The notes beneath the pieces were generated by a model. It ran no database searches. It had not been told where the DNA came from and saw only the letters and a program-made list of their open reading frames with translations. Positions 29,700 through 50,821 of a DNA stretch of 64,000 bases are shown here, piece after piece. Made by a program: the position numbers and the translations under genes. The DNA is from Chloroflexota bacterium (GTDB lineage: Bacteria > Chloroflexota > Anaerolineae > Anaerolineales > Villigracilaceae): positions 1 to 64,000 of the forward strand of contig JBBITF010000006.1 of assembly GCA_037440925.1 (NCBI GenBank), written 5' to 3'. Within the stretch, counting starts at the first letter, position 1. Every line of letters begins with the position of its first letter.

Positions 29700-29740
29700 T
29701 GCATAAAAACGGACTTCAGCGGTCGCATGGAGGTAAAAAT

Positions 29741-31997: not shown

Positions 31998-32207
31998 ATG
32001 AGCGACGAAGTGACGGAGGAACTGAAGAATCAAATCGTTGAATTCTTCAAACAAAAAGGGAAGATGATGACCCATCGTGATGTTGCCAAAGGCCTTGACC
32101 TGGATCAAAAACTGGTCAAGAAGGCGCTGACAGAATTAGTCAATGCCGGCACATTGGAATTTACTTCCTTTGGCGGCGCCACGTTCATCAAACTCCCCGG
32201 CACATGA
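31998..32207 (+). CDS. dsrD: DsrD (small winged-helix protein of reductive dsr operons)
   Basis: 69 aa, located directly after dsrB. KKALTELVNAGTLEFTSFGGATF matches the DsrD KKxLxxLVxxxxLE(Y/F) pattern. Confidence 0.85.
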   Translation: MSDEVTEELKNQIVEFFKQKGKMMTHRDVAKGLDLDQKLVKKALTELVNAGTLEFTSFGGATFIKLPGT

Positions 32208-32251: not shown

Positions 32252-32569
32252 ATGCCTGTAGTCGAACTGAATGGGATACAGGTAAGTGTGGACGAGGATG
32301 GTTTCATTGAAGACCCTTCCGTATGGAATGAGGAATTGGCGGCTGCCATTGCCAAAACCGAGGAAGTCAATGAATTGACCGAGGATCATTGGAAGGTAGT
32401 CAAGTATCTGCGGGAATATTACCTGCAATTTGGCATTGCGCCCATGATCCGTAAACTCTGCAAAGAGACCGGTTACGACCTCAAAACCATTTACGAGTTA
32501 TTTCCAAGCGGTCCAGCCAAAGGCGCCTGCAAGATTGCTGGCTTGCCCAAGCCCACTGGCTGCGTCTAG
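32252..32569 (+). CDS. dsrC: DsrC (TusE/DsrC/DsvC family) with both C-terminal arm cysteines
   Basis: The C-terminus GACKIAGLPKPTGCV has the two conserved Cys residues 10 residues apart. GAGGAGG RBS. Confidence 0.95.
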   Translation: MPVVELNGIQVSVDEDGFIEDPSVWNEELAAAIAKTEEVNELTEDHWKVVKYLREYYLQFGIAPMIRKLCKETGYDLKTIYELFPSGPAKGACKIAGLPKPTGCV

Positions 32570-32675: not shown

Positions 32676-33422
32676 ATGAGCACAAGCGATATTTTGTGGA
32701 CCCTGCTTTCCCTCTTTTTCATTGGTCTGGCTTATTTTGCAGCCTTTTCTTTCGTGGCAGGTTTGCTGTGGAAATTCTACGGTTACTTGCGCACTCCCAT
32801 GCCTTTACCTCATGCTGTGACACCTGCTCCTAAGACAGAAGGGGGAGCCGTCTTACGCGTGTTAGGAGATGTCACCCTCTTCTCCAACCTGTTCAAAGCC
32901 GATAAATGGTTGTGGGGAGGTGCGTGGCTCTTCCATGTTGCCTTGGCTGCGGTTTTATTCCGTCACTTGCGTTATTTTACTTACCCCGTGCCTGGACTGG
33001 TCCTATACATGGAATCGGTGGCGCTATTCTTTGGCAGTTTGCTGGGGGCGGCTGCCTTGTTCCTGTTTTGGCGGCGGCTGGCTTTGCCGCGCACACTCTA
33101 TATTTCTAATATCCCCGATTATTTTGCCCTGGCTTTGTTGGGCGTGATTGCCGGCAGTGGCCTGATGGTGAATTACTGGTTGCGCGTCAATATCGTAGAT
33201 GTCAAAGGCTTTATTTTGGGATTGATGACTTTCCATCCTGTCGAAGTACCTCATCATCCCTTGTTCCTCTTGCATTTACTGGCCGTCCTGATTTTGATGA
33301 TTTACTTCCCTTTCAGCAAGTTGCTCCATGCAGGCGGTCTGATTTTCAGCCCCTCGCGTCATCAGCCTTTTCAGGTGCAGGTGCGCGGCAAGCGTTATAT
33401 CAATCCAGTTGACCGTTATTGA
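32676..33422 (+). CDS. dsrM: DsrM (NarI/HdrE-like dihaem b membrane subunit)
   Basis: Five to six TM helices with conserved His residues (LFHVA, FRHLRY, PHHPLFLLH, LLHAGG). It lies immediately upstream of dsrK. Confidence 0.85.
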   Translation: MSTSDILWTLLSLFFIGLAYFAAFSFVAGLLWKFYGYLRTPMPLPHAVTPAPKTEGGAVLRVLGDVTLFSNLFKADKWLWGGAWLFHVALAAVLFRHLRYFTYPVPGLVLYMESVALFFGSLLGAAALFLFWRRLALPRTLYISNIPDYFALALLGVIAGSGLMVNYWLRVNIVDVKGFILGLMTFHPVEVPHHPLFLLHLLAVLILMIYFPFSKLLHAGGLIFSPSRHQPFQVQVRGKRYINPVDRY

Positions 33423-33433
33423 GAGAATAACCT

Positions 33434-34879
33434 ATGTCGAAATTCGATGAGACTCCGATTGTCAAAGACCCGGCAGTAAATGGCGTCTTGCGCCCGCCCA
33501 AACTCCGCGAACACGCTTCGGCAGAGGTGCAGTGTTATCCGAGCAAGCCCAAAGATACTTCGGCCATTGATTTGCCGACCGAATTGGTGCCGGATTGGAA
33601 AGAGCGTGCCATTGCCAGATTGGGCGAGTTGTTGGAAAAGAACCAGGCCTTGCGCGTCTACATGGACATCTGTGTGCGCTGCGGCGCCTGCACCGACAAA
33701 TGCCAGTTCTTCCTGGGGACGGGCGACCCGCAGAACTTCCCGGTGGCGCGCGCGGAACTGCTGCGAAAAGTCTATCGCCGCTACTTTACGCCGGCCGGTC
33801 TCTTCCCAGACCTGGGAGAGGCCGCCGATTTAGACGAAGAGATGCTCCAGAAGTGGTACACCTACTTCTACCAATGCTCCGAATGCCGCCGCTGTTCGGT
33901 CTTTTGCCCGTATGGCATAGATACTGCCGAAATTACCATTGCCGCGCGCGAGATCATGGCCTCGATTGGTGTCTCGACCAAATACATCACGGAAGTTGTG
34001 GCAAAGGTCTATGCTACTGGCAACAATCTGGGCATTCCGCCGGCTGCCTGGAAGGACAACTGCGAATTTCTCGAAGAGGATGTGCAGGCGGATACCGGCC
34101 TGCCTATCCGCTTCCCAGTCGATGAGAAAGGCGCCGAAGTTCTGCTGGTGCCGCCCTCGGCCGATAACTTTGCCAATACTGACACCATGATTGGCTATGG
34201 CAAACTCTTCCATTTCTTGGGCGTCAGTTGGACAACCAGCACCTACTGTAATGAAGGCGGTAACTTTGGCCTGTTCTTGAATTTTGCCAACTTGAAAAAA
34301 GTCAACCGCCGCATTCTGGATGCCGCCCGCGAATTGGGCGTCAAGACCATTATCTGGGGTGAGTGTGGACATGCCTGGCGGGCAGGCATTATGACGCCTT
34401 CGCTCAATGGCCCGATGGATGATTTCGATCCGCCTTATCCGTACCATATTAGCCAGTATATCGTTGACATGCTGCACAAAGGCGCTTTCGAGGGCCACAT
34501 AGACAAGTCGGCCAATGACCAGTATCTTGTCACCTATCATGACCCGTGCAATTCTGCGCGCGCGGGCTACCTCATCGAAGAACCGCGTGAGATCATCCGC
34601 GCCGTTTGTAACCGCTTTGTCGAAATGCCAGAAGGCACCATCCGCGAAAAGACTTTTTGCTGCGGCGCAGGCAACGGCCTGTTGACGGATGAGATTATGC
34701 CCATCCGCATGGCGGGCGGCAAACCGCGCGCCATGGCCGTCAAGCACACCGGCGCCAATTACCTGGCCACTGTATGTGCAATTTGCAAGGCGCAATTGCC
34801 CGAATCCATGCACTATTGGCAGGTGCCGGTCAAGGTGGGTGGCGTGATTGACTTGCTGGCGAACGCTCTCAAATTCTAG
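33434..34879 (+). CDS. dsrK: DsrK (HdrD-like Fe-S / CCG-domain catalytic subunit)
   Basis: Motifs: CVRCGACTDKC, CSECRRCSVFCPYGID, CGHAWR, HDPCNSAR, FCCGAGNG, CAICKAQL. Confidence 0.9.
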   Translation: MSKFDETPIVKDPAVNGVLRPPKLREHASAEVQCYPSKPKDTSAIDLPTELVPDWKERAIARLGELLEKNQALRVYMDICVRCGACTDKCQFFLGTGDPQNFPVARAELLRKVYRRYFTPAGLFPDLGEAADLDEEMLQKWYTYFYQCSECRRCSVFCPYGIDTAEITIAAREIMASIGVSTKYITEVVAKVYATGNNLGIPPAAWKDNCEFLEEDVQADTGLPIRFPVDEKGAEVLLVPPSADNFANTDTMIGYGKLFHFLGVSWTTSTYCNEGGNFGLFLNFANLKKVNRRILDAARELGVKTIIWGECGHAWRAGIMTPSLNGPMDDFDPPYPYHISQYIVDMLHKGAFEGHIDKSANDQYLVTYHDPCNSARAGYLIEEPREIIRAVCNRFVEMPEGTIREKTFCCGAGNGLLTDEIMPIRMAGGKPRAMAVKHTGANYLATVCAICKAQLPESMHYWQVPVKVGGVIDLLANALKF

Positions 34880-34894: not shown

Positions 34895-35197
34895 ATGCGC
34901 AAAGTAGCCTTGTCTCTCGTTGTATTCGGAATTCTGCTCTTGACGGTCCTCTTTTATCCGCGCTATGTGGAGAAACCCGTCAAGGACGGTGAAGGGCCGT
35001 TGGCGATTTACCTTGACCCCAGCCTGCCGGCGCCTGAATATCACAGCCCCTTAGACTGGTGGAAACGGAATCACAAGACGATCGTCAATCGCGGCGACCT
35101 GGACAGGCGCGATTGCCTGCAATGCCATGACCCGGCCACCTCTTGCAACAATTGTCACGCTTATGTGGGCGCGGCTGAGATTGTCGTTGCCCCCTAA
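34895..35197 (+). CDS. Membrane-anchored dihaem cytochrome c (occupies the dsrJ position but is not a trihaem DsrJ)
   Basis: N-terminal TM helix VALSLVVFGILLLTVLF and two CxxCH motifs (CLQCH, CNNCH). ATG 34895 lies behind GGAG; the track ORF begins at TTG 34883. Confidence 0.75.
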   Translation: MRKVALSLVVFGILLLTVLFYPRYVEKPVKDGEGPLAIYLDPSLPAPEYHSPLDWWKRNHKTIVNRGDLDRRDCLQCHDPATSCNNCHAYVGAAEIVVAP

Positions 35198-35659
35198 ATG
35201 GTGAGCGCTATGACGGATACTTCTGTTTCCTCTCCTAAACCTTCCATTTTCTCCCGCCGCCGCCAGTTTATTCAACTGGGCTTCTTGACGGTGGCAGCCG
35301 CCTGGCTGGGAACATGGCTGCAAGCGCGTCTCTTCCCGGCCGCCAGCGCCAGCCAGGAAGCTGCGCCGGTCTCTTTTCCATTGAGCGACTTGCCGGTTGG
35401 CGGAGCCAAAGCCATTACGTATGGCGGCATTCCTGTATTGGTATTGCGCACCCCGCAGAGTCTCCGCGCCTTCTCGTTGATTTGCACGCACCTGGGCTGT
35501 ATTGTGGAATGGCAAGATAACAAGAAGGAATTTTATTGCCCTTGTCACGATGGCCGCTATGATGAATTTGGCGATGTGTTGGCCGGCCCCCCGCCCATTC
35601 CGTTGGAGCAATTTGCCGTGCGCATCGAGGGCGAACAAGTCATCGTCGGCGAGGCTTGA
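35198..35659 (+). CDS. Tat-exported Rieske [2Fe-2S] protein
   Basis: Twin-arginine motif SRRRQFIQLG plus a hydrophobic anchor. Rieske boxes are CTHLGC and CPCHDGRY. Its ATG abuts the stop of the upstream gene. Confidence 0.9.
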   Translation: MVSAMTDTSVSSPKPSIFSRRRQFIQLGFLTVAAAWLGTWLQARLFPAASASQEAAPVSFPLSDLPVGGAKAITYGGIPVLVLRTPQSLRAFSLICTHLGCIVEWQDNKKEFYCPCHDGRYDEFGDVLAGPPPIPLEQFAVRIEGEQVIVGEA

Positions 35660-35674
35660 GGCAGGAGAATGAAC

Positions 35675-36049
35675 ATGAAACGTTTTCTAATTTTCTTCGG
35701 TTCACTGCTTGTGACTGTGGCGTTGCTGTTGGCCCTCTTGCCCGCTGCTACGGCCCAAGCCCTTCCCGAATATTCAGCGCAGACCGGGGAACCCTGCGCC
35801 TCTTGTCACATCAGCCCCTCGGGCGGCGGCCCCCGCGGCCCGCGCGGGCAGGCCTGGGTAGCCTCCGGCAAACCCGGCGCCGTGCCGGATACGCTCCAGG
35901 CGCTCGAATTGCTGGGCGTCGAATTGAGCGTGGATCCGGCCTATTTTACGGCAACAGGTTTCGAGGTCCAGGAACCGGAAGCGCTGCAGGTCGCTCCGGC
36001 CCAGAGCGTGCGCTTGTACCGTTGGTTGAGTCAATATGATGGCAATTAG
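35675..36049 (+). CDS. Secreted monohaem cytochrome c
   Basis: Sec signal peptide (LLALLPAATAQA) and a single CASCH. AGGAG lies 8 nt before ATG 35675; the alternative start is ATG 35669. Confidence 0.75.
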   Translation: MKRFLIFFGSLLVTVALLLALLPAATAQALPEYSAQTGEPCASCHISPSGGGPRGPRGQAWVASGKPGAVPDTLQALELLGVELSVDPAYFTATGFEVQEPEALQVAPAQSVRLYRWLSQYDGN

Positions 36050-36080
36050 TCGTCGTGCGTTGATCGGTAAAGGATAGCCT

Positions 36081-38450
36081 ATGGAAAACTTCCCCTCTCA
36101 GACTCCTCCCTCAGAACTTTCCCGTCGTGATTTCATCAAATTTGGCGCCGCTGCCGCCATCGCCGGCGTTGGACTGAACGCTTTGCAGCCAGCGCAGCAG
36201 GCTACCTCGGTGCAAGCGGCGGTGGGTGAAGAGACGATTGTTAAAACGACATGCGCCTTGTGCCCCTCAGGCTGCGGCCTGGATGTGCGCGTGGTGAACG
36301 GCAAGGCGGTGAAAGTGGAAGGCAACCCGCTGCACCCGCTCAACCAGGGCGTATGCTGCCTGCGGGGACAGACCTCGTTGGAGGTGCTGTATAGCCCAGA
36401 GCGCATCCAACGCCCGCGCGTCCAGATGGGCGAGCGCGGTTCGGGCGATTGGAAAGAAATCTCGTGGGACGAGGCGCTTGAACTGGCGGCTGGCAAACTC
36501 GGTGAACTGCGCGCCGCTGGAAAGCCTCATAGCGTTGCGCTCATGCATGGCGAACTGCGCGGGCAAATGCGCCAGACGGTGCAGCGTTTCATGCGCGCCT
36601 ATGGCTCGCCGAATGTCATTTCGCGCGAGAGTTTGGGCGAAGGCGCGGCCCGTATGGCTTTATGGCTTTCACAAGGCGTAAACGCGCTGCCGGTCTACGA
36701 CATCAACAACGCCAATTATGTGTTGACCTTTGGGGGCAACCTGCTCGAATCCAGCCGCAACTTGATTGGCTATCTGGGCGCGACGGCTTTCATGCGGCGC
36801 GGACGCCCACAGCGCGGCAAACTGGTGGCCGTCCACCCGCGCCTTTCTCTGACCGGCATCAAGGCCGACGAGTGGGTGCCAATCCGCCCTGGCACGTATG
36901 GCGCGCTGGCTTTGGGCATGGCCAATGTCATCATCAACAGCAAACTATATGACGAAGCCTTCGTGCGCGACTTTACCTTTGGCTTCGAGGATTTCGAGGA
37001 CGCCGAGGGGACGTTGCACAAAGGCTTCAAGTCGCTGGTGTTGGAAACCTATACCCTCGAGCGCGTCTCGGCTATTACGGGCGTCTCTACCGATAAGATT
37101 GCCCGCATTGCGGGCGAATTTGCCACCAACCGCCCGGCGGTCGCCATGCTGCCCACCGAGGCGGGCGAACTCTCTAGCGGCAATGCGCTGTACACGGCGC
37201 TGGCCGTCCATGCCTTGAATGCCCTGGTTGGCTCGATAGACGTCAAGGGCGGCGTCCTCTTGCAGCGCTTCCCTAAATTGGCCGACTGGCCTGACTACAC
37301 CCTCGATGCGACAGCCCGCCTGGGAGAAAGCCGCGAGCGCATAGACGGGGCCGGCTCCCAATTCCCCTTGGCGCTATCGGCCTATCAGAATGTGCCAGAG
37401 CGCATCCTGGAGGGCAAGCCTTACCCCATCGAGGCCCTCTTCTTGCTGAACGCCAACCCGCTCTACGACCTGCCCAATGGCGGGCGTACCCTGGAAGCCT
37501 TGCAAAAAGTACCTTTTGTGGTCAGTTTTGCCTCCACCCTCGACGAAAGCGCGGCCTATGCCGACCTGATTTTGCCGGCCAGCACCTTCCTAGAAGTGTG
37601 GGGCGACGATTACCTGGAAGGCACGGGCTATGCGGGCATCTCCCTGCGCCAGCCGGCTGTTGCGCCGCTCCACGATACGCGCAATCCCGGCGACGTGCTG
37701 CTCGACCTGGCGCACCGCATCGGAGGTAATCTGGCAAAAGCCTTCCCCTGGGAAACCTACCAAGACCTGATCATGCAGCGCCTGTCTACCCTGGATTGGG
37801 AGAAATTGCAGGCCAACGGCAACTGGTCCGAACTGGTCTATTTCAACGCCCAACCCGGCAGCCCCGCCTGGAGCGAGGTGGTCGGACGTGACCGCTTGAA
37901 CGCTCCCAAAGATGGACGCTTCGACTTCTTCTCGCGCGAACTCTTCGCCCTGCTCGCTTCGGACTCGGACTTGGCCTGCTTGCCCCACTTCGAGATTCCC
38001 CCCGCCCTGGCCGACACTGCCGAGGGCGCCCTCGACTATCCTTTCCTGCTGGTCGTACAGCCGCTCATCACCCAGTCGCAGCAATGGCAAGGCATCGTCC
38101 CCACCTTGCAGGAGAGTTACGGCTTGCAAGGGCATGTCAAGTGGGACAGTTGGGTAGAAATCAGCCAGAAGGCAGCCGAAGCCCTCCACCTCGAGGATGG
38201 GCAGCGCGTGTGGGTAGAATCGCCGCTCGACCGCGTGCAGGCCACCGTTAGGGTATATGCTGGCATCTGGCCGAATGCCGTCTTCCTGCCGCCTGGACAG
38301 GGCCATCACACCTTTGTGCGCTGGGGCCGCAAATCTGAGCAGAACATGGTCGTCGGCGCCAACCCGAATGTTCTGAGTTTGTTTACGAGCGAGCCGTTGA
38401 GCGGACTGGCCGTAGCCGGCCCCACCCGCGTCCGTATTTATCCGGTTTGA
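36081..38450 (+). CDS. Tat-exported molybdopterin (Mo-bisPGD) oxidoreductase-family large subunit (PsrA/PhsA/QrcB/ActB1-like)
   Basis: Tat signal SRRDFIKFGAAAAIAG. The FS0 motif is CALCPSGC-x26-C(C)LRG. Length is 789 aa. FeS and NrfD subunits follow. Confidence 0.9.
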   Translation: MENFPSQTPPSELSRRDFIKFGAAAAIAGVGLNALQPAQQATSVQAAVGEETIVKTTCALCPSGCGLDVRVVNGKAVKVEGNPLHPLNQGVCCLRGQTSLEVLYSPERIQRPRVQMGERGSGDWKEISWDEALELAAGKLGELRAAGKPHSVALMHGELRGQMRQTVQRFMRAYGSPNVISRESLGEGAARMALWLSQGVNALPVYDINNANYVLTFGGNLLESSRNLIGYLGATAFMRRGRPQRGKLVAVHPRLSLTGIKADEWVPIRPGTYGALALGMANVIINSKLYDEAFVRDFTFGFEDFEDAEGTLHKGFKSLVLETYTLERVSAITGVSTDKIARIAGEFATNRPAVAMLPTEAGELSSGNALYTALAVHALNALVGSIDVKGGVLLQRFPKLADWPDYTLDATARLGESRERIDGAGSQFPLALSAYQNVPERILEGKPYPIEALFLLNANPLYDLPNGGRTLEALQKVPFVVSFASTLDESAAYADLILPASTFLEVWGDDYLEGTGYAGISLRQPAVAPLHDTRNPGDVLLDLAHRIGGNLAKAFPWETYQDLIMQRLSTLDWEKLQANGNWSELVYFNAQPGSPAWSEVVGRDRLNAPKDGRFDFFSRELFALLASDSDLACLPHFEIPPALADTAEGALDYPFLLVVQPLITQSQQWQGIVPTLQESYGLQGHVKWDSWVEISQKAAEALHLEDGQRVWVESPLDRVQATVRVYAGIWPNAVFLPPGQGHHTFVRWGRKSEQNMVVGANPNVLSLFTSEPLSGLAVAGPTRVRIYPV

Positions 38451-38477
38451 TTGGAATTTTATATTTGGAGGTAGAAC

Positions 38478-39164
38478 ATGCCCCGCTGGGGAATGGTCAT
38501 TGACCTGGACAAATGCTTTGCCTGCCAGAGCTGCACCGCAGCCTGCCGCATGGAAAACAACACGCCTGTGGCCGGAAAGAACCAGGCCGATATGGGGCGC
38601 GCCATCCTGTGGAACGAGGTCTTGCCGTTCATAGAAGGCGAGTATCCCAATATCCACACCACCATGTTGCCGCGCCCGTGTATGCACTGCGACAACCCAC
38701 CCTGCGTTAAAGTCTGCCCGGTGCAGGCGACTTACAAAAACGAAGAAGGCATCGTGCTGGTGAACTACGATCGCTGTATTGGCTGCCGCATGTGCACTGT
38801 GGCTTGCCCTTATGCCGTGCGTTACTTCAACTGGTACCCCCCCGAATGGCCCGAGGAACTGAAAGCGCACTTGAATCCAGAACCGGAAGTGCAGCCTCGT
38901 CCTAAAGGCGTGGTCGAAAAATGTACCTTCTGCTTCCAGCGTTTGCGCAAAGCGCGTGAAGAAGCCGATGCAGAAGGTCGTCCTTTCAACGCCACTGACT
39001 ACACCCCTGCCTGCGTGCAAACCTGCACCGGCCACGCCCGCTACTTTGGCGACCTGGATGACCCGAACAGCCTGGTCTCTAAACTGGCGCATAGCCCGCG
39101 CGCCTTCCGTATGTTCGAAGAACTTGGCACACAGCCCAAAGTCTATTACTTGAAGCAAGGGTGA
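38478..39164 (+). CDS. 4x[4Fe-4S] ferredoxin-type electron-transfer subunit (PsrB/DsrO/QrcC/ActB2-like)
   Basis: Four Cys clusters: CFACQSCTAAC, CMHCDNPPCVKVCP, CIGCRMCTVACP, CTFC...CVQTC. It has no signal peptide of its own, so it would need to be co-exported with the Tat subunit. GGAGG RBS. Confidence 0.9.
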   Translation: MPRWGMVIDLDKCFACQSCTAACRMENNTPVAGKNQADMGRAILWNEVLPFIEGEYPNIHTTMLPRPCMHCDNPPCVKVCPVQATYKNEEGIVLVNYDRCIGCRMCTVACPYAVRYFNWYPPEWPEELKAHLNPEPEVQPRPKGVVEKCTFCFQRLRKAREEADAEGRPFNATDYTPACVQTCTGHARYFGDLDDPNSLVSKLAHSPRAFRMFEELGTQPKVYYLKQG

Positions 39165-39168
39165 TGAT

Positions 39169-40497
39169 ATGGAACCCAAGAATCAAAACGTACAGCAAAT
39201 CCTTGCTCCCGTGCGCCGCGTTTCGGCTGGCGATTACCTGCTGTGGGGCGTCTTGCTTGCCTTGTTGTTGACCGGCCTGGGCGCCTGGACGTGGCAATTC
39301 ATCGAGGGCTTGGGCATCACCGGCATGAACCGCCCGGTCTATTGGGGCGTATACATTACCAACTTCGTTTTCTTCATCGGCCTGGCGCATTCCGGCACCT
39401 TCATCTCGGCCATCTTGCGCATCGCCGGGCAGAGTTGGCGCGCCCCGCTCACCCGCGCTGCCGAAGCCATCACGCTTTTCAGCCTGCCCTTCGGTGCTGG
39501 CTCCATCATTATTGATATGGGGCACCCCGAGCGCATCCTCAATGTCATTTTCTATGGACGTTACCAGTCGCCCATCCTGTGGGATGTGACAGCCGTCAGC
39601 CTGTATATGCTCTCCAGCATCATCTTCTTCTACTTCTCGCTCATCCCCGACATTGCGATTTGCCGCGACCGCCTCACCGACGCTCCGCGCTGGCAGCGCC
39701 GCATGTACCAAATCCTGGCTCTGGGTTGGAAGCACCATCCTGAGCAATATCGCCGTCTGGAAAAAGTGCTGGATGGTATGGCCGTTTTCATGACCATGTT
39801 GGTCGTCACCGTTCACACTGTGGTTTCCTGGCTGTTTGGCATGACCGTCCAACCTGGCTGGCATACCGCCTTGATCGGGCCGTTCTTCCTGTTGGGCGCC
39901 ATCCTATCGGGAACGGCGGCGGTGGTGATCACCTTGGCCATCCTGCGCAAGGTCTATCATCTGGAAAATGTCTTGCATGTCGGCCTGTTCAACTCTTTGC
40001 GCAAACTGTTGATTACCTTTGTCCTGGGCTGGCTGTACATGATGATCGCCGAGCATCTCACCATTGGTTATAGCAGCATGACCGAAGAGATGGTCGTCCT
40101 CAACGACAAATTCAGCGGCACCTTCTCGTTGATTTTCTGGAGCATGGCTACCTTCGTGTTTGGTCTTCCTTTGCTCATCTTCCTCTTCAAAGGCAAGAAC
40201 AATATCGGTTGGATGGTGTTTGCCTGTGTCCTCATCAATATTGGCATGTGGCTGGAGCGTTACATTGTCATCATCCCTACCGAGGTTAGCCCGCGCATGT
40301 TGCATGTCATGGGACAGGGACACTACCTCCCCCAACTGCCTGAAATCCTCATCACGATTGCCTGTTTCGCTGGCCTCATCCTGCTCTACGCGGTCTTTAC
40401 TCGTTTCTTCCCCATTGTTCCCATCTGGGAGACGGCTCAGGAACTGCCCGGCCACGCGCATTCTCAGCCGGCTCCGGCAGCCGCAGCCAGCGATTAG
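39169..40497 (+). CDS. NrfD-family quinone-interacting membrane subunit (ActC/QrcD/DsrP-like, 442 aa)
   Basis: About 10 TM helices. WGVYITNFVFFIGLAHSGTFISAILR, SPILWDV, GWHTALIGPFFLLGAILSG and GMWLERYIVIIP resemble the ACIII ActC/ActF and Qrc style of NrfD proteins. Confidence 0.9.
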   Translation: MEPKNQNVQQILAPVRRVSAGDYLLWGVLLALLLTGLGAWTWQFIEGLGITGMNRPVYWGVYITNFVFFIGLAHSGTFISAILRIAGQSWRAPLTRAAEAITLFSLPFGAGSIIIDMGHPERILNVIFYGRYQSPILWDVTAVSLYMLSSIIFFYFSLIPDIAICRDRLTDAPRWQRRMYQILALGWKHHPEQYRRLEKVLDGMAVFMTMLVVTVHTVVSWLFGMTVQPGWHTALIGPFFLLGAILSGTAAVVITLAILRKVYHLENVLHVGLFNSLRKLLITFVLGWLYMMIAEHLTIGYSSMTEEMVVLNDKFSGTFSLIFWSMATFVFGLPLLIFLFKGKNNIGWMVFACVLINIGMWLERYIVIIPTEVSPRMLHVMGQGHYLPQLPEILITIACFAGLILLYAVFTRFFPIVPIWETAQELPGHAHSQPAPAAAASD

Positions 40498-40515
40498 CCC
40501 CTTCAGGAGGTTGAC

Positions 40516-40704
40516 ATGAACATTGGCGGTTTGGTTCACGCATATTTCGACAATGCCGGCCCGGGCGGAGTCTTTGTCTTGCTGGTTGTCGGCGTTGCCT
40601 GCACTACCTACTACCTCCTGGCCCGCTGGTTCGTAGCCGGCGGTAGAACAGAGAGCCAGGCAGTTCCTTCTACCGATGAACAACCTGTGAGCATGGACGA
40701 ATGA
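40516..40704 (+). CDS. 62-aa single-TM protein (ActD-like position)
   Basis: AGGAGG RBS, one TM helix (VFVLLVVGVACTTYYLL), and a 4-nt ATGA overlap with the next gene. Confidence 0.55.
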   Translation: MNIGGLVHAYFDNAGPGGVFVLLVVGVACTTYYLLARWFVAGGRTESQAVPSTDEQPVSMDE

Positions 40705-42791
40705 AACGACGAATTCTGCTTCCCTCCCTGGTCTTCCTGGCGGTCCTGACGCTGGCCGTCGGCTCCGTCTCCGCTTCCTCCCTCGACTTCAGCCTGCCTG
40801 CCTCGGCCGAAGGAGAGACTCTCGTCTCCGGCAATTACTGCGCCTCCTGTCATCTGACCGATGACCCGCGCCTGGCGTCTGCCACGGCTTGGAAAGGCGG
40901 CATCCAAAGCAAAGTCAACTCGCCCTGCCCGGCAGCCATCAAAATACACGAAGAACTATATTACACCGAACGGTTGCTGCTCATGATCGAACGCGCCGAA
41001 AACGCAGTTGGCCCCTTGCCCGAAAAGAGCCAGGCTCGTTTGGAGGACTATACCCAGCGTTACAGCCGTATGCTCGATACGCCTGTCGGCAGCCTGGACG
41101 CTTTCGTCAGTGAAGCCCAGTCAACTCGTTATCAGTTGAACAAGGCCTATGCTGCGCTCAATCAAATGGCGCAAGACGCCAAACAGCGCACAATCTTGAC
41201 GTATGCGGCGGCGATTACCTTGATTGTGCTTGGCTCATTGGCCTGGGGCGTGTACAACTCCCGCGCGCTGGCCTCTGGAAAGGTGAGCCGATCTTGGGGG
41301 CTATTCTGGCGTGTGCTGTTTATCGTGGCTGTTGTGGCGTTCTTTACCTTGCCTTTCTTCCGTGTGCCGGCCGAAGAGGTGGTGATGACCACTGCCGAAC
41401 AGCAGGAAGCCCAGGCAACCCTCGATGCCGCTCAACGCGCAGCCGACGCTGCCGACCGTTCGCAGGCGCGCGCCTGGATGTTAGCCCGCGTTGCGGCTGC
41501 CTATGCCGAAATGGACGCCGCCCAAGCCCAGGCTATCCTGGATGAAGCGCTGACCTCGCTCGACGTAGCCCGCAAGAACGAAGAAGCCCTGTGGGGGCAA
41601 AGCCTGGTCGTGCAAGAAGTGACGGTTGGCACCAAAATCGAAATGGAATCGGCCGGCCTCATCACCGCCGACCTGAACGCTGCCCGCGCCCGCGCCTGGG
41701 CCTTGCCGCTGGTTGCCCGGCAGTGGAACGCCCTCGATCCAATCAAAGCCGCCGCCCTCTTACAGGCCGAACAGGACGCCCTGATTGGCCAAGAAGGCCT
41801 CTACCGTGATTTACAATTGCGCGCCCTATCGCTGGCCTGGGTCGAAGTGAATCCTTCCAAGGCCGCCCCTGCTGCCGCCCAAATACAGGACGCTTCCCTG
41901 CGCGCCTGGACCTTCCGTGAACTGGCGGACCTGACCCACAACCCCTCACTCTATGACAAAGCCCTCCAGGCTGCGCGTGAAATCACGGACCCTGTCCAGA
42001 AAGCGCGCGCCCTGCGAGAGATTGCCCACTCTTCTGGCAAGAGCGCCCTTTTCGAGGAAGCCCTGACCGCGCTAGATGGCGTGACCGACCCCGCTTTGGC
42101 CTATGCCCTCAGCGACCTGGCCGCTGCCTGGGGCAACGCTTCTCTGGTCGAAAGAATCGCCTACCCCGATGCCCGCGCCAGCGCCTTGCTGCGCATGGGA
42201 GAATACCCCTCCGCTTGGGAGGCGGCGGCAGGCATCGCTGATCCTTACGAACAGGCGCGCGCCCAAGCCGCCATTGCTTCTGCCTGGGGCAATGCCGATG
42301 CCGCCATGCAGATTGCTGTCCCCTTATACCGCGATTTGGCATTGCGCGATGTCATCCGAAAAACGGGAAATACGTCACTGGCAGAGGCAATTACCTCCAA
42401 GTACTATAAAGTCCAGGCTCTAACTGCTCTAGGCGAGACCGAATCTGCCCTCCAAGTAGCCGCCGACCTGGGCGAAACCTACCCCTTGGTTGATTTGGCT
42501 GTCCATTTGTCCGCCTCCAATCCGCAGGCGGCGTTGGCCTTGGTCGAGCAGATGAAGCGCGAAAGCGACAAAGCCATTGCCTTGCAGGCTATTGCTGTTG
42601 CCTCGCAGGACCCGTCGCTCATCGAACAGGCGCAGGGCATGGCACTGGCCGCCCGCGTGCGCGGCGACTCGCTGGCCCCGGCCCAGGCTTTGCTCGATCT
42701 TGCAAATGCCCTTCTGGAAGTAGATGTCAAATACGCAGAAGCAGCCTTTCGTCAGGCGTATGAAGCGGCGCAGCGCATTGCAACCAAATGA
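40701..42791 (+). CDS. Monohaem cytochrome c domain + two TM helices + ~450-aa Ala-rich helical-repeat (HEAT/TPR-like) domain protein
   Basis: Signal peptide, a single CASCH, two TM helices (ILTYAAAITLIVLGSLAWGVY and LFWRVLFIVAVVAFFTLPFF), then repeated ~30-aa units of the form D-x-x-x-(R/K)A-x-AL-x-x-IA-x-x-W. Confidence 0.75.
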   Translation: MKRRILLPSLVFLAVLTLAVGSVSASSLDFSLPASAEGETLVSGNYCASCHLTDDPRLASATAWKGGIQSKVNSPCPAAIKIHEELYYTERLLLMIERAENAVGPLPEKSQARLEDYTQRYSRMLDTPVGSLDAFVSEAQSTRYQLNKAYAALNQMAQDAKQRTILTYAAAITLIVLGSLAWGVYNSRALASGKVSRSWGLFWRVLFIVAVVAFFTLPFFRVPAEEVVMTTAEQQEAQATLDAAQRAADAADRSQARAWMLARVAAAYAEMDAAQAQAILDEALTSLDVARKNEEALWGQSLVVQEVTVGTKIEMESAGLITADLNAARARAWALPLVARQWNALDPIKAAALLQAEQDALIGQEGLYRDLQLRALSLAWVEVNPSKAAPAAAQIQDASLRAWTFRELADLTHNPSLYDKALQAAREITDPVQKARALREIAHSSGKSALFEEALTALDGVTDPALAYALSDLAAAWGNASLVERIAYPDARASALLRMGEYPSAWEAAAGIADPYEQARAQAAIASAWGNADAAMQIAVPLYRDLALRDVIRKTGNTSLAEAITSKYYKVQALTALGETESALQVAADLGETYPLVDLAVHLSASNPQAALALVEQMKRESDKAIALQAIAVASQDPSLIEQAQGMALAARVRGDSLAPAQALLDLANALLEVDVKYAEAAFRQAYEAAQRIATK

Positions 42792-42812: not shown

Positions 42813-43196
42813 ATGTTGAATGAATATACCGGTAAGCGCGTTCTTGTGATTGCCACCTTTGGTTCTGCTAACCCAGAGCGCGGCCCCGGTCCATTTGTCT
42901 TTGCCGGCGAAGCCGCCAGGGGCGGCGCTGAAGTCATGCTCATCTTTGTCTTGCAAGCGCCGCTGCTCCTCAAGCGGGGCGTTGCGGAGAAATTGTATGC
43001 CAAACAAGGCGGGCGTACCATCCGCGAATTCATTGATGATGCCCTGCGGCTTGGGGTAAAATGCTATGTGTGTGATACGGCGTTGCAACTTTGCGACATG
43101 ACGCCCGAAGACTTGATTGAAGAAGTGGACGAACTGGTCGGCCCCAGTTTCTTGATCAAACAAGGATTACAGGCTGATCTGGTTCTCTCTTTCTAA
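42813..43196 (+). CDS. DsrE/DsrF-like family protein
   Basis: 127 aa with a DsrE-fold pattern: KRVLVIATFGS..., central cysteines VKCYVCDTALQLC, and C-terminal FLIKQGLQADLVLSF. Confidence 0.65.
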   Translation: MLNEYTGKRVLVIATFGSANPERGPGPFVFAGEAARGGAEVMLIFVLQAPLLLKRGVAEKLYAKQGGRTIREFIDDALRLGVKCYVCDTALQLCDMTPEDLIEEVDELVGPSFLIKQGLQADLVLSF

Positions 43197-43215
43197 AAAA
43201 CCATTTGGAGGTAGT

Positions 43216-43416
43216 ATGTTCATCGTAACCATTGATATCCAAAAATGTAAAGCCTGCGGTGATTGCGTGGAAAATTGCCCTCAACAGGCCATTGCCATCA
43301 CCGAAGAAGGCGGCAAAAAGTATGCCATGTTTACCGGTAGTCCCGATGATTGTATTGGCTGCTTATCCTGCGAATCTTCTTGTGAAGAAGGCGCCATTAC
43401 CGTTACCGAGTACTAA
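43216..43416 (+). CDS. 2x[4Fe-4S] ferredoxin
   Basis: CKACGDCVENCP and CIGCLSCESSC. GGAGG RBS. Confidence 0.85.
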   Translation: MFIVTIDIQKCKACGDCVENCPQQAIAITEEGGKKYAMFTGSPDDCIGCLSCESSCEEGAITVTEY

Positions 43417-43463
43417 TCGCGCTGTTTTCTCCTCTTACGCTAACGGCTGGATGTATTCCCCTG

Positions 43464-44888
43464 ATGACTGCTCGAACCCGTCATGCGCCTCGTCTGGTCA
43501 TTGCGGCGCCCCAGGGTCGAAGTGGAAAAACCACCCTGACCTTGGGATTGTGCGCCGCATTCAAAGCGCGCGCGCTGACCATCCAGCCCTACAAAAAAGG
43601 ACCCGATTACATTGATCCCTCCTGGCTGAGTGAAGCCGCTGGAACCCTCTGCCGTTCCCTAGACCCTTTCTTTTACGAAAAGCCCGAAGAACTCTTACGG
43701 GCTTTTCTGCGCTCTGCTCCTCAAGATGGGGTGAGCCTGATCGAAGGCAATCACGGCTTGTTTGACTCCTTCGATGAAAGCGGACGAGGTAGCACGGCTG
43801 CGGTTGCGCGCACGTTGCAGGCTCCCCTCCTGTTGGTGATCAATGCCGCCCGCATGGGGCGCAGCGCCGCGGCCATCGTGCATGGCTGTCAAACCTTCGA
43901 GCCAGAAACGAACATCGCCGGCGTGGTTCTGAACAACGTAGCGCAAGGTCGCCACGAGGCCCGTATGCGCCAGGCCATTGAAAGTCGCTGCGGTGTGCCT
44001 GTATTGGGCGCCATTCCACGCGACGAAACCCTGACCATCCCCGACCGTCACCTGGGATTGGTGCCTCGCGCCGAACAAGACGCGCTTCTTCCCGCCATCA
44101 CAGCCTGCCGGCAGACTATCGAGCGCTACCTCGACCTCGATGCTGTCCTGGCTATAGCCCGGGCTGCGCCTGCTTTACCCGCTCCCTCTCCGGCCTCCTC
44201 CGCGGCCCAGCCGGTCTCGCATCGGCCGCTCATCGGCGTCCTGCGCGACCGTGCCTTTACCTTCTACTACCCTGAAAATTTAGAAGCCCTGGAAGAAGCC
44301 GGTGCCGACCTGCTCTTCCTGGACGCTTTGCGTGACGCCGAATTGCCCCCTGTAGACGCCCTCTACATCGGCGGCGGCTTCCCCGAAATATTCATGGACG
44401 AGTTGTCTGCCAACGTTTCTCTGCGCCGCGCCATCCGCGAAGCCATCGAAAACGACTTGCCGGTCTACGCCGAATGCGGCGGCCTGATGTACCTCTCCCA
44501 GCGCATTGTGTGGGGCGAAAAATCGGCCGAGATGGTGGGCGCCTTGCCCTGCGAAATCGAAATGACCTCCAAACCCCAGGGACATGGCTACGTAACTGCC
44601 CAGGTGGAGGCCGAGAATCCTTTTTTCTCGCCGGGCCTGCTCTTGCGTGGACATGAGTTCCACAACTCGCGGCTTGTAATGCTCCCTGGCAACCGCCTTG
44701 CAACGGCTTATCGCCTCTTGCGCGGCAATGGAGTAGGCGATGGCCGCGATGGGCTTCTTTACCGTAACACATTGGCTTCTTACACTCATTTGCATTCTGG
44801 CGGAGCGCCTGACTGGGCCGTTGGCCTGGTTCATCGGGCGCAGGTTTATCGAGAAAACCGCCTACAAGCAGAAATGGATAACAGATGA
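43464..44888 (+). CDS. dsrN: Cobyrinic acid a,c-diamide synthase family protein, DsrN (sirohaem amidase) by context
   Basis: P-loop APQGRSGKTTLTLGL with KKGPDYIDPSW, and a C-terminal glutamine-amidotransferase part (YAECGGLMYL, GHEFHNS). Located in the dsr operon. Confidence 0.85.
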   Translation: MTARTRHAPRLVIAAPQGRSGKTTLTLGLCAAFKARALTIQPYKKGPDYIDPSWLSEAAGTLCRSLDPFFYEKPEELLRAFLRSAPQDGVSLIEGNHGLFDSFDESGRGSTAAVARTLQAPLLLVINAARMGRSAAAIVHGCQTFEPETNIAGVVLNNVAQGRHEARMRQAIESRCGVPVLGAIPRDETLTIPDRHLGLVPRAEQDALLPAITACRQTIERYLDLDAVLAIARAAPALPAPSPASSAAQPVSHRPLIGVLRDRAFTFYYPENLEALEEAGADLLFLDALRDAELPPVDALYIGGGFPEIFMDELSANVSLRRAIREAIENDLPVYAECGGLMYLSQRIVWGEKSAEMVGALPCEIEMTSKPQGHGYVTAQVEAENPFFSPGLLLRGHEFHNSRLVMLPGNRLATAYRLLRGNGVGDGRDGLLYRNTLASYTHLHSGGAPDWAVGLVHRAQVYRENRLQAEMDNR

Positions 44889-46015
44889 GGCTGCCTCTCC
44901 TTTCCAATATTGGTAATTTTTTCCCAAAATTGCGCTCGAAACCGGATGTCCAGGCCTCCAAAAAACGGCCGTTTAACGTCGTGCAAATCGAAATCACCAG
45001 TCGCTGCAGCACCGGCTGTGTCTTCTGCCCGCATGATGCTTTGTCTGACAAATGGATAGACGGGGACCTGTCGCCGCTCATGTATGAAGAATATATCGTC
45101 CCGCATCTGGATTTGTTCGATTTGGTGTACCTGCAAGGCTGGGGCGAACCTATGCTGCACCCCAACCTGTGGGATATGCTGGCCTCGGCTCAAGACAAGG
45201 GTTGCCGCACCGGCTTCACCACCAACGGCGCCTGGCTGCAAAGCGAACAAAATCAGCGTCTGGTAGAGATGGGTGTGGATATGATTTCCGTCTCTTTTGC
45301 CGGGACGGCTGCTCCCATTCACGAATCGCTGCGTACCAATTCTCAGTTTGCCGAACTGTGTAGCAATTTCGAGAGCCTGGCCAACCTCAAGAAACAACGC
45401 GGCGTGACCAAACCCTGGCTCGAATTGCATTTCCTGATGACCCGCGCCAATTTGAAAGAATTCCCTGGCCTGGTCGAACTGGCTGCCTCCCTAGGCGCGG
45501 ATGAAGTAGTCGCCACCAACCTCACCTATTCCCCGAGCCTGGCGCTAGACCGGATGCACATCTTTGGCGAACAGCCTCTGCCTGAAGATGTCGAACTGAT
45601 TCAGCGCGCCCAAGCCAACGCTGAACGGCTGAACATTCCGCTGCGCGTTTACCCGCTCCAAACCGAACCCAATACCCTGGTCTGTGACGCTGACCCGCTC
45701 AATACCGTGTACGTCAACCATCGCGGCGAGGTCTCCCCTTGTGTCTATCTGGGGCTAACAGTGCAGGGAAGGGTTCCGCGCTTCTATCAGGGCGAAGCTC
45801 ACCCATTTGACGCCCTTTCCTTTGGAAATATTCAGACAGGTTTCTTGAAGGCGCTTCATGGAAAAGAGCGCGAGACCTTCCTGTCTGCTTTCAAACAACG
45901 CAATATGACCAGCGGCCCTCTGGCGATGCTTACCTACATGTCCGAACCAGGCCAGGCTGAATTGCCGCCTCCGCCTGTCCCTTGTCAGCATTGCTACAAA
46001 ATGTTGGGCGTGTGA
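44885..46015 (+). CDS. Radical SAM enzyme with C-terminal SPASM/twitch-like Cys region (NirJ/Ahb/MoaA-like style)
   Basis: CSTGCVFC (Cx3Cx2C) follows VVQIEITSRC. The GWGEPML motif is present. C-terminal cysteines are CDADP...SPCVYL...PCQHC. There is a 4-nt ATGA overlap with dsrN. Confidence 0.85.
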   Translation: MRLPLLSNIGNFFPKLRSKPDVQASKKRPFNVVQIEITSRCSTGCVFCPHDALSDKWIDGDLSPLMYEEYIVPHLDLFDLVYLQGWGEPMLHPNLWDMLASAQDKGCRTGFTTNGAWLQSEQNQRLVEMGVDMISVSFAGTAAPIHESLRTNSQFAELCSNFESLANLKKQRGVTKPWLELHFLMTRANLKEFPGLVELAASLGADEVVATNLTYSPSLALDRMHIFGEQPLPEDVELIQRAQANAERLNIPLRVYPLQTEPNTLVCDADPLNTVYVNHRGEVSPCVYLGLTVQGRVPRFYQGEAHPFDALSFGNIQTGFLKALHGKERETFLSAFKQRNMTSGPLAMLTYMSEPGQAELPPPPVPCQHCYKMLGV

Positions 46016-50820: not shown

Positions 50821-50821
50821 G

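Follow-up and report, generated by a model that had tools for sequence, protein, structure and literature searches.

The electron supply of DsrMK and the way in which energy is conserved in sulfite reduction have long been debated. For the DsrMKJOP complex, a preprint (10.64898/2026.08.25.746951) describes quinol oxidation at DsrP, electron transfer from DsrO through DsrJ and DsrM to DsrK, and contact between DsrJ and DsrM; it also describes that DsrM proteins depending on DsrJOP have their own quinol site blocked by two Arg where NarI has Gly. Related quinone modules are alternative complex III (ACIII) and QrcABCD, whose QrcB subunit has been described as lacking redox cofactors (PMC13059093). 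Here, we analyzed a 64,000-nt window of a contig from a Chloroflexota metagenome-assembled genome (MAG), in which an earlier note had described eight genes directly downstream of dsrMK as a replacement of dsrJOP by a hybrid Rieske + ACIII/Qrc/Psr-type complex. All coordinates given below are window positions.

According to our preferred reading, to which we assign a probability of about 0.5, the eight genes and dsrMK would encode a lineage-specific Dsr membrane complex in which DsrJOP is functionally replaced by an ACIII/Qrc-type quinone module, with the electron route of the preprint as a direct functional template. This reading is favored because synteny with gaps of ≤31 nt holds in 25 of 25 loci despite an identity of ~50%, because the Mo-fold proteins of dsr-linked loci form one clade whose sister modules lack dsr, and because a dihaem cytochrome (c2) and the Rieske protein strictly accompany dsrMK and are absent from L018, a dsr-free locus. 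It is also favored because c2 lies in the dsrJ slot with a DsrJ-like anchor and has DsrJ as its sole recurrent match, because a two-Arg motif in DsrM matches the occluded-site signature of JOP-dependent DsrM, and because the NrfD subunit keeps the ActC channel residues together with a DsrP-type Asp. Finally, the FeS subunit scores 192 bits on DsrO and 266 on QrcC, and a published census found no canonical DsrMK partner in related genomes, both of which point in the same direction.

Gene content and gene order of the dsr-linked module

On the + strand from 29.7 to 46 kb, dsrA, dsrB, dsrD, dsrC, dsrM and dsrK are followed by eight open reading frames (ORFs) without a break:

29687-30928, +: dsrA (translation; NIR_SIR Pfam matches for dsrAB in the related loci L001-L004)
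30928-31986, +: dsrB (translation; the same NIR_SIR matches in L001-L004)
31998-32207, +: dsrD (translation; DsrD Pfam match in L001-L004)
32252-32569, +: dsrC (translation; DsrC Pfam match in L001-L004)
32676-33422, +: dsrM, 248 aa, NarI-type dihaem cytochrome b (Pfam Nitrate_red_gam)
33434-34879, +: dsrK, 481 aa, HdrD-like catalytic subunit (Pfam Fer4_8 + CCG)
34895-35197, +: c2, 100 aa from a conserved ATG, transmembrane (TM)-anchored dihaem cytochrome c; TTG at 34883 is a possible alternative start
35198-35659, +: Rieske protein, 153 aa, N-terminally anchored [2Fe-2S] protein exported by twin-arginine translocation (Tat)
35669-36049, +: c1, 126 aa, secreted monohaem cytochrome c
36081-38450, +: Mo-fold subunit, 789 aa, Tat-exported, with the fold of molybdenum-bis(pyranopterin guanine dinucleotide) (Mo-bisPGD) proteins
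38478-39164, +: FeS subunit, 228 aa, four-cluster ferredoxin
39169-40497, +: NrfD subunit, 442 aa, ActC-like membrane protein
40516-40704, +: 62-aa peptide with a single TM segment
40701-42791, +: 696-aa protein with signal peptide, monohaem domain, two-TM hairpin and alpha-solenoid

Counted from the end of dsrK (34879), the spacing through the eight genes is 15, 0, 9, 31, 27, 4 and 18 nt, followed by a 4-nt overlap, and the tight same-strand packing described earlier was confirmed by these ORF coordinates. A Shine-Dalgarno-like sequence precedes most of the eight genes. A terminator scan, which as a whole performed only at chance level (site total equal to the shuffle expectation), placed no site in any + strand intergenic gap. 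Promoter-like sites were slightly more frequent than the shuffle mean (16 vs 8.9 ± 3.1), with none in a + strand intergenic gap of the block.

All motifs named in the earlier note were found in the translations: CLQCH and CNNCH in c2; RRRQF, CTHLGC and CPCH in the Rieske protein; CASCH in c1; SRRDFIKFG and C58x2C61x3C65...C93 in the Mo-fold subunit; 16 Cys in the FeS subunit; and CASCH with two TM segments in the 696-aa protein. Pfam matches were obtained for four of the eight proteins (Rieske; Molybdop_Fe4S4, Molybdopterin, Molydop_binding and TAT_signal; Fer4_11; NrfD), and c2, c1, the 62-aa peptide and the 696-aa protein had no Pfam match. A hydropathy scan gave one TM segment in c2, ~10 in NrfD and one in the 62-aa peptide, one signal or anchor segment in c1, and a signal peptide plus two TM segments in the 696-aa protein.

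We scanned one genome per GTDB species with a 15-sequence alignment as query, which yielded 80 loci (Mo-fold identity 86-37%), and compared gene order in a matrix of tblastn searches with 16 window proteins over all of these loci. The order dsrA-B-D-C-M-K-c2-Rieske-c1-Mo-FeS-NrfD-(62aa)-696aa was identical in all 25 loci that cover the dsrK/c2-Rieske junction, each of them from a Chloroflexota/Anaerolineae MAG, and the contigs of four homologue-bearing loci (L001-L004) displayed the same gene order as the window. This order was unchanged where identity drops to ~50% for the Mo-fold protein and to ~30-45% for the 696-aa protein. Over the related loci, tblastn identity was 73-96% for dsrA, dsrB and dsrC (dsrA being partial or lower in L021 and L027) and lower, at 53-96%, for dsrD. 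The haem, Rieske and FeS ligands are all invariant in the alignments of these loci. Because the same order and invariant ligands recur in 25 of 25 loci, chance and misassembly are excluded; an assembly chimera, in particular, was rejected on finding the same arrangement in more than 25 independent MAGs.

Database homologues of the 696-aa protein numbered 233, of which the taxon-named ones belong to Anaerolineales/Chloroflexota except for one MAG labelled Bacteroidota; the 86 homologues of c2 are all unnamed Chloroflexota proteins; and the Mo-fold protein has more than 120 cluster representatives with 67-91% identity.

Compared with DsrMKJOP, the locus has dsrM and dsrK immediately upstream and dsrABDC and dsrN in the operon as well, and, after dsrK, a TM-anchored multihaem cytochrome c, then a four-cluster FeS protein in the periplasm and an NrfD-family subunit that binds no cofactor and has Asp at its quinol-site position, as DsrP does. 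The locus differs in that c2 has two haems rather than the three of DsrJ and lacks the His/Cys haem; in that the FeS subunit, unlike the Tat-exported DsrO, lacks its own Tat signal and comes with a large Mo-fold partner; in that NrfD is ActC-like (108 bits against a cut-off of 350 on the DsrP model); and in that a Rieske protein, a monohaem cytochrome c, the 62-aa peptide and the 696-aa haem/solenoid protein are added. In cable bacteria, which carry DsrMKJ and DsrOhPh-tetrahaem, the O/P-type quinone module likewise departs from the canonical operon; however, their O/P homologues are encoded at another locus and are predicted to assemble into a complex of their own, whereas the module in the window is contiguous with dsrMK, ActC/QrcBC-like and equipped with a Rieske protein. 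The earlier claim that the module replaces dsrJOP needs to be restated. The module takes the place of dsrJOP in the operon, and dsrJ, dsrO and dsrP were scored as absent in related genomes; however, it is not a clean eight-gene swap, since c2 is probably a DsrJ relative, the FeS subunit reaches 192 of the 200 bits required on DsrO, and the five core genes also occur without dsr.

A full-text literature search found no description of a Rieske + ACIII/Qrc-like module next to dsrMK; Duarte et al. 2021 on NrfD-family neighbourhoods, outside the coverage of this search, might mention such clusters. The view that the architecture is undescribed was thus borne out for the literature on Dsr diversity and evolution, the NrfD family and DsrMKJOP structure. 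Judged by its genes, the arrangement is a variant of the modular Dsr/NrfD-type respiratory complexes that is known from MAG sequences.

The Mo-fold, FeS and NrfD subunits

The best family and structure matches of the Mo-fold subunit were PhsA, QrcB, ArrA and PsrA, all far below the curated cut-offs (NCBIfam score/cut-off: PhsA 336/694, QrcB 293.5/440, ArrA 274/1600, and AioA (arsenite_ox_L) 27.4/359). In HMMER alignments, the Mo-ligand Cys of ArrA (6cz7) and PsrA (2vpw) aligned to Gly186, a position occupied by G, A, D, N, E or H in 120 close homologues. The pterin-binding Asp is replaced in both of its motifs (DPR to HPR and PGTD to PGTY) in 112 of 112 close homologues, whereas Cys-bearing relatives from the same search kept it in 9/12 (DPR) and 11/12 (PGTD). 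In contrast to these losses, the four-Cys FS0 motif, which is of the [4Fe-4S] type, was kept in 117 of the 120 close homologues. Among 50%-identity cluster representatives, the protein falls within a very large Tat-exported set, most members of which have FS0 and lack the Cys. The QrcB cut-off was reached by none of 55 relatives, and one homologue carries the JGI label 'menaquinone reductase, molybdopterin-binding-like subunit'. These features suggest that the Mo-fold subunit is probably a cofactor-less scaffold like QrcB or ActB1, but one that keeps FS0. Thus, of the Mo-bisPGD-family subunit proposed earlier, the fold, the Tat signal and the Cx2Cx3Cx26C motif stand, but the Mo ligand and pterin-binding residues are lost.

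Unlike the catalytic complex iron-sulfur molybdoenzyme reductases (PsrABC, PhsABC, TtrABC and ArrAB), the subunit has neither a conserved Mo ligand of the Cys/Sec/Ser/Asp type nor the residues that bind molybdopterin guanine dinucleotide. Since Mo ligand and pterin-binding residues are lost, a catalytic role of the Psr/Phs/Ttr type is unlikely, and a catalytic Psr/Phs identity was rejected on the same grounds. In arsenite oxidase, Mo is not bound by any protein ligand, and a Tat-anchored Rieske subunit is the partner. This enzyme thus offers a precedent for the broader alternative that the Mo-fold protein is an active Mo/W enzyme, either a thiosulfate, polysulfide or tetrathionate reductase or an Aio-like ligand-free Mo oxidase, with the Rieske protein as its partner. 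Such an enzyme would also fit the best NCBIfam and PDB matches (PhsA, ArrA, PsrA), the FS0 retained in 117/120 and a radical SAM/SPASM maturase-like gene downstream. However, we consider it highly unlikely: the ligand position varies (G/A/D/N/E/H), the DPR/PGTD Asp is H or Y in 112/112 close homologues, all scores (PhsA, ArrA, AioA, AioB) are far under the cut-offs, and the partner NrfD is of the 10-TM ActC type rather than the 8-TM PsrC type. With regard to AioAB itself, the window shares a Rieske gene next to that of a Mo-fold subunit without a protein Mo ligand, but the Mo-fold subunit is Psr/Arr/Qrc-like and not AioA-like (27 bits), FS0 is [4Fe-4S] rather than the [3Fe-4S] of AioA, and the AioB model (arsenite_ox_S) gives the Rieske protein 33.2 bits against a cut-off of 95.65.

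All 16 Cys of the FeS subunit are invariant; as it lacks a signal peptide, its export presumably occurs together with that of the Mo-fold subunit. Its NCBIfam scores were 266.6 bits for QrcC (cut-off 400) and 192 bits for DsrO (cut-off 200), and its best PDB matches were ActB C-terminal domains (190 bits). Taken together, these matches identify it as an ActB2/QrcC/DsrO-like protein.

For NrfD, the closest PDB chains were ActC of four ACIII structures at 182-217 bits (6f0k_C 217; also 6lod_C and 6btm_C), and PsrC was not matched in this search. Among NCBIfam models, there was no QrcD match, and the DsrP model gave 108 bits (cut-off 350). Mapping of NrfD onto ActC of Rhodothermus marinus, based on the residues that Sousa et al. 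2018 (PMC5928083) list, showed that 14/15 cytoplasmic and 5/6 periplasmic half-channel residues are identical (19/21) and that Trp, Ile, Phe, Val and Asp169 of the quinol pocket are retained. The position of ActC His139 is Asp (motif DMGRPxR) in each of the 41 loci of the dsr-linked and sister clades, and likewise in 29 of the 32 loci that are more distant; according to the preprint cited above (10.64898/2026.08.25.746951), DsrP Asp107 is strictly conserved where ActC has His. By these alignments, the subunit is ActC-like, with a DsrP-type Asp at the quinol site. The assignment of FeS and NrfD to the ACIII/Qrc type was accordingly borne out by the QrcC, ActB and ActC matches. Of the ActC/QrcD-like motifs reported for NrfD, the ActC-like part was upheld (217 bits, 19/21 channel residues) but no QrcD match was found; similarly, of the proposed Rieske + ACIII/Qrc/Psr-type hybrid, the ACIII/Qrc-type FeS and NrfD subunits were retained, but Psr-type catalysis is unlikely and PsrC was not matched.

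The locus shares with ACIII an NrfD protein nearest to ActC, an FeS protein nearest to the ActB C-terminal domain, a Mo-fold protein without a Mo site, and c haems as a putative periplasmic wire. However, the Mo-fold and FeS proteins are separate genes where ActB is fused, FS0 is retained, there is one NrfD-like subunit and no ActF, a Rieske protein is present, and linkage is to dsr and not to an oxidase. Pfam, NCBIfam and PDB searches gave no ActA, ActD or ActE match for the cytochromes and small proteins of the window, which include no pentahaem ActA. A standard ACIII operon was therefore rejected (no ActA, ActD, ActF or fused ActB). With QrcABCD, the locus has in common a Tat-exported Mo-fold protein (in the window, one that probably lacks Mo, as judged by sequence), a four-cluster FeS protein, a single 10-TM NrfD protein and an association with sulfur-compound respiration. 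It differs in scoring below the cut-offs (QrcB 293/440, QrcC 267/400, no QrcD match), in keeping FS0 where QrcB has no redox cofactor, in having a Rieske protein and small cytochromes instead of the hexahaem QrcA, and in lying inside the dsr operon.

As a separate observation, NrfD is phylogenetically discordant with its Mo-fold and FeS neighbours: it is only 38-47% identical to that of the window in some dsr-linked loci, compared with 66-74% in some dsr-free sister-clade loci (loci compared: L002, L010, L012, L018, L023, L024, L026, L028, L043, L052, L058; L040, L042, L046). This suggests a cassette exchange of the membrane subunit.

DsrM, the cytochromes and the Rieske protein

DsrK scored 526.5 bits on the NCBIfam DsrK model, above the cut-off of 400, and the best NCBIfam match of DsrM was DsrM at 142 bits (cut-off 300). 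The candidate haem ligands of DsrM, H87/H97 and H201/H218, align with NarI H56, H66, H187 and H205, and the R96-H97-L-R99 motif, which is kept in the relatives, is aligned to G65-H66-F-F-G69 of E. coli NarI. The window DsrM is therefore consistent with the form whose quinol site is blocked.

In the census of Diao et al. 2023 (PMC10591310 supplement), the Anaerolineales MAGs UBA5796, UBA7227 and UBA11579 were scored 1 for dsrA, B, C, D, K and M and 0 for dsrJ, O and P; aprAB and qmoAB were 0 and sat 1 in all three, sqr was 1 in UBA5796 and UBA7227 but not in UBA11579, and neither dsrEFH nor dsrL was scored. UBA5796 corresponds to locus L009 of the present set. As a result of such scores, these lineages are treated as DsrMK-only, apr-less putative sulfite reducers. 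For UBA7227 (GCA_003598975), phsA was also scored as 1 alongside 0 for dsrJ/O/P (PMC10591310), and this call may be the Mo-ligand-less subunit, in other words an over-call of thiosulfate reductase. Marker-gene censuses thus score such genomes as 'DsrMK only', and at least once the apparently dead Mo-fold subunit seems to have been called phsA. As a consequence, thiosulfate-reductase potential may be over-called and the respiratory complexity of Anaerolineales under-called.

These genomes also bear on the direction of electron flow. Alternatively to reduction, DsrC-bound sulfur would be oxidised at DsrK, in an oxidative or disproportionating metabolism, with electrons passing via DsrM and c2 to the Rieske protein and c cytochromes and/or through NrfD to menaquinone. 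A bc-type Rieske protein with disulfide cysteines would suit a higher-potential branch, Chloroflexi have been reported to carry a chimeric Dsr system with DsrMK and DsrN sister to the oxidative type (Neukirchen et al. 2023, PMC10504309), and in the three related census MAGs sqr was scored in two and aprAB and qmoAB in none. However, dsrD, a marker of reductive operation, is present and conserved, Diao et al. 2023 infer reductive operation for Chloroflexota, the census lacks dsrEFH and dsrL, and the window ORFs examined include neither a terminal oxidase nor a nitrate reductase. We regard oxidative operation as improbable.

Turning back to the preferred reading, in which DsrM receives electrons from the module, c2 is the cytochrome encoded closest to dsrK. 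It lies directly 3' of dsrK (15 nt), that is, in the usual dsrJ slot, and has the same N-terminal TM anchor architecture as DsrJ. It carries one N-terminal TM segment and the haem motifs C74xxCH and C84xxCH; H50 and H60 are invariant, and the ligands do not vary in 25 sequences. The C-terminal part of the DsrJ model NF038038 is its sole recurrent family match, obtained for 5/5 members (E = 0.0017-0.9). On this basis, c2 is probably a reduced relative of DsrJ. Searches of PDB sequences with c2, c1, the 696-aa protein or DsrM returned nothing usable.

For c1, we identified the conserved motif ALPEYSAQTGEPCxxCHxSPSGGGxRxPRGQAW. It has no conserved Met or His as distal haem ligand and no Pfam, NCBIfam or PDB match. 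The sixth haem ligand of c1 might conceivably come from a partner protein, in the way that DsrO His148 ligates a DsrJ haem according to the preprint (10.64898/2026.08.25.746951). The 62-aa peptide has the conserved motif GPGG...YY.L.RW, and an equivalent small ORF directly follows NrfD in the dsr-free relatives L005 and L018.

The 696-aa protein has the monohaem motif C47xxCH51 and invariant C76 and M95. Its AlphaFold2 model (predicted local distance difference test score, pLDDT, 82) comprises a small haem domain, a TM hairpin and a ~470-aa alpha-solenoid predicted to face the periplasm. A Foldseek search of the PDB with this model gave only generic designed, TPR- or HEAT-type solenoids with TM-scores ≤0.3. 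With respect to C76, a His/Cys-ligated haem is conceivable, like the third haem of DsrJ that c2 lacks.

In the Rieske protein, the cluster boxes are C96-T-H98-L-G-C101 and C114-P-C116-H117-D-G, the disulfide cysteines are present and the ligands are invariant in 26 sequences. The Pfam Rieske score was 49 bits, the NCBIfam bc1 and b6f Rieske models gave ~67-70 bits, all below cut-off, and the best PDB match was 8hn2_A (80 bits). By its motifs, the protein is of the bc/b6f type with a Tat/TM anchor, sharing both cluster boxes and the disulfide cysteines with bc1/b6f Rieske proteins. Unlike those systems, the 64-kb window contains no cytochrome b/b6 or subunit IV gene. In bc1 Rieske proteins, mutagenesis has established that a Ser and a Tyr bear on the cluster potential. 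This potential-raising Ser is Gly in the window protein, and the following Tyr is Phe in many family members, which suggests a cluster potential near the bottom of the bc-type range.

Seven cytochrome b6/subunit IV proteins from related loci (5/7 Pfam-confirmed) were compared with the 64-kb window by tblastn, and the best E value was 0.16. The earlier view that the Rieske protein lacks a cytochrome b was therefore only partly sustained: there is no bc-type cytochrome b in the 64 kb, but the NarI-type dihaem cytochrome b DsrM is directly upstream, and the Rieske protein is thus not without a possible b-type partner. A bc-type Rieske gene near a dihaem cytochrome b and no canonical cytochrome b in the window could indicate that the Rieske protein, DsrM and the quinol site of NrfD form a bifurcating, Q-cycle-like device, in which one electron would pass to the Rieske protein and c haems and the other, at low potential, via DsrM to DsrK. 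For DsrMKJOP, the possibility of quinone-based bifurcation has been mentioned in the literature (PMC10861901), and such a device would represent bc1-like energy coupling built from non-bc parts and wired directly into sulfite respiration. However, this appears very unlikely, as DsrM belongs to the NarI type rather than the bc type and seems to have an occluded quinol site, the window ORFs examined yielded no high-potential terminal acceptor, and the NrfD quinone site in ACIII and DsrP passes electrons to an FeS cluster and not to a Rieske head.

Within the clade of the window, the Rieske gene was found only in dsr-linked loci, and a tblastn search of plasmids with it retrieved generic Rieske proteins only. 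In more distant loci from other phyla, a Rieske gene lies near the Mo-fold/FeS/NrfD set, accompanied by the usual genes for cytochrome b6 and subunit IV. A complete Rieske/cytochrome b6/subunit IV set was observed beside the Mo-fold/FeS/NrfD module in L050 (2281-7249), L060 (8348-12818), L066 (15945-20908) and L081 (17816-22363), and the Rieske gene only of this set in L082 (11189-14501). The hosts of these five loci are Thermodesulfobacteriota, Aminicenantes, Syntrophaceae and another Anaerolineales MAG, and all five loci contain multihaem cytochromes. A ~600-aa ORF is present in L060, L066, L081 and L082 and not in L050; the L060 copy has NAD(P)-linked flavoprotein and FeS domains (Pyr_redox_2, Fer4).

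Evolution of the module, proposed electron route and neighbouring genes

In a neighbour-joining tree of the Mo-fold proteins from the loci set, those of all dsr-linked loci form one clade. The sister clade (46-50% identity), also from Chloroflexota, encodes a c1-like cytochrome, the Mo-fold, FeS and NrfD subunits, a small TM ORF and large multihaem cytochromes, with no dsr, c2 or Rieske gene at these loci and with two-component regulators in L005-L007, which are annotated. One locus inside the dsr clade, L018 (CP070811.1, 2216190-2238556; a chromosome-level MAG of 5.35 Mb), has the set c1-Mo-FeS-NrfD-62aa-696aa with a LuxR-type regulator fragment upstream; no dsr, c2 or Rieske gene was found within 10 kb, several parts of this locus, including the stretch just upstream of c1, being masked (runs of N). 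In the tblastn matrix, c2 and the Rieske protein were present only where dsrMK is adjacent. As the core occurs without dsr and these two genes occur only with dsrMK, c2 and the Rieske gene track the linkage to dsrMK. From this distribution, the core (c1-Mo-fold-FeS-NrfD-small TM) is an older, autonomous Chloroflexota module, and the dsr-linked form suggests modular evolution, in which a pre-existing quinone module would have been captured into the dsr operon together with two adaptor genes. Hence the possible objection that the block might be common, already characterised and not linked to dsr holds in one respect, since the core recurs without dsr, but c2 and the Rieske gene are strictly dsrMK-linked and no standard ACIII operon is involved.

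This distribution also admits, as the main alternative, a separate Qrc/ACIII-like complex, co-regulated with dsr but not attached to DsrMK, that links periplasmic one-electron carriers to the menaquinone pool. It would act either as a cytochrome c:menaquinone reductase, an entry route like Qrc that feeds menaquinol to DsrMK, or as a quinol:cytochrome c exit. The core module without dsr in the sister clade, accompanied by multihaem cytochromes and two-component regulators, the 696-aa protein retained without dsr in L018, and the scores on QrcB, QrcC, ActB and ActC are all in line with such a complex, and in Desulfovibrio, Qrc and DsrMKJOP cooperate via the quinone pool (PMC6303296, PMC13059093). 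We nevertheless consider it unlikely on balance, although it deserves consideration. The c2 and Rieske genes track dsrMK strictly and are gone where the module is dsr-free, c2 lies in the dsrJ slot at 15 nt from dsrK, and the window ORFs examined include no gene for a periplasmic hydrogenase or formate dehydrogenase. Moreover, the DsrM signature is that of the form unable to oxidise quinol itself, and such a DsrM would have no electron donor if the module were separate.

Under the preferred reading of a Dsr membrane complex with a replaced quinone module, menaquinol would be oxidised at a periplasm-side site of the ActC/DsrP-like NrfD subunit, with protons released outside; proton pumping via the conserved ActC-type half-channels would also be possible. 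Electrons would pass along the four clusters of the FeS subunit, held by the cofactor-less Mo-fold scaffold still carrying FS0, to the periplasmic one-electron carriers (the Rieske protein, the monohaem c1 and the haem of the 696-aa protein), and then to the TM-anchored DsrJ-like dihaem c2. From c2, they would reach the haems b of DsrM and then DsrK, which would reduce DsrC-trisulfide to sulfide. A structural or assembly role may fall to the 62-aa peptide and the 696-aa solenoid protein. The scheme builds on the observed gene content, invariant cofactor ligands, lost Mo-site residues, ActC-like NrfD residues, strict synteny and co-occurrence pattern; we infer that the module physically associates with DsrMK, how its carriers are ordered, which way electrons flow and what the Rieske cluster does.

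Several points weigh against this scheme. The cluster of a bc-type Rieske protein normally lies well above the potential of menaquinone, so that its place in a chain ending at DsrK is thermodynamically awkward. Because the core module works without dsr in relatives, linkage in an operon could reflect co-regulation rather than a single complex. The score of c2 on the DsrJ model was 10-19 bits (cut-off 100) over ~25 residues holding the two CXXCH motifs, and could reflect composition, while the AlphaFold2 model of c2 (34-sequence alignment; pLDDT 63, and ~55 in the haem domain) is too poor to test the fold. The equivalence of the two Arg in DsrM depends on our own NarI alignment rather than on the figures of the preprint. 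Finally, the window and L001 both encode an Hmc-like complex with a DsrK-like subunit nearby, which could be the partner instead.

If the preferred reading holds, the locus represents a natural module swap, in which J, O and P give way to a dihaem cytochrome c and an ACIII/Qrc-type FeS/NrfD pair while DsrMK, with an apparently occluded-site DsrM, is retained. Such a swap would provide independent comparative support for periplasm-side quinol oxidation feeding DsrM as the essential job of JOP. It would also place an unusual Rieske protein, with no cytochrome b gene in the 64-kb window, in a putatively anaerobic sulfite reducer.

The Hmc/Tmc-like complex is encoded 6 kb downstream of the dsr module and was recognised by NCBIfam and Pfam matches:

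49015-53726, -: Hmc/Tmc-like four-gene cluster (also in L001, 17996-22118)

It comprises a DsrK-like CCG protein of 458 aa (best NCBIfam match DsrK, 291 bits), an HmcE-like protein of 234 aa, an HmcB-like FeS protein of 263 aa and an HmcC-like NrfD protein of 601 aa fused to a C-terminal cytochrome c3 domain. A helix-turn-helix-cupin regulator (53739-54404) lies upstream of it, and the window and L001 are the only loci in which the cluster was found close to the dsr genes.

Directly after the module, at 42813-46015 (+), come genes for a 127-aa DsrE-like protein, a 474-aa a,c-diamide synthase of the DsrN type and a 376-aa radical SAM/SPASM protein. The last of these matched best to tungsten-cofactor-oxidoreductase maturase and AhbD-like models, in every case below cut-off. 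In many relatives, a second pair of DsrM-like (213 aa) and DsrK-like (449-465 aa, CCG) proteins and a 66-aa ferredoxin are encoded between the 696-aa gene and dsrN (L001 12144-14792, L002 12132-14819, L004 15733-18042); the window lacks these genes. A tblastn search of plasmids with dsrB found nothing.

Further upstream, SecA (16645-20619, +) is unusually long at 1324 aa. Its DEAD-like match spans residues 11-430 for a 290-position model, with a further gap before the P-loop domain (611-806), which suggests large insertions. Directly upstream of dsrA, 28497-29612 (+) encodes a YeiH/PF03601 membrane protein of the 'putative sulfate exporter' family. This gene is kept there at 57-92% identity in most dsr loci with flanking sequence, being weaker or absent in L010 and L052, and its product may be a transporter of sulfite or another sulfur anion.

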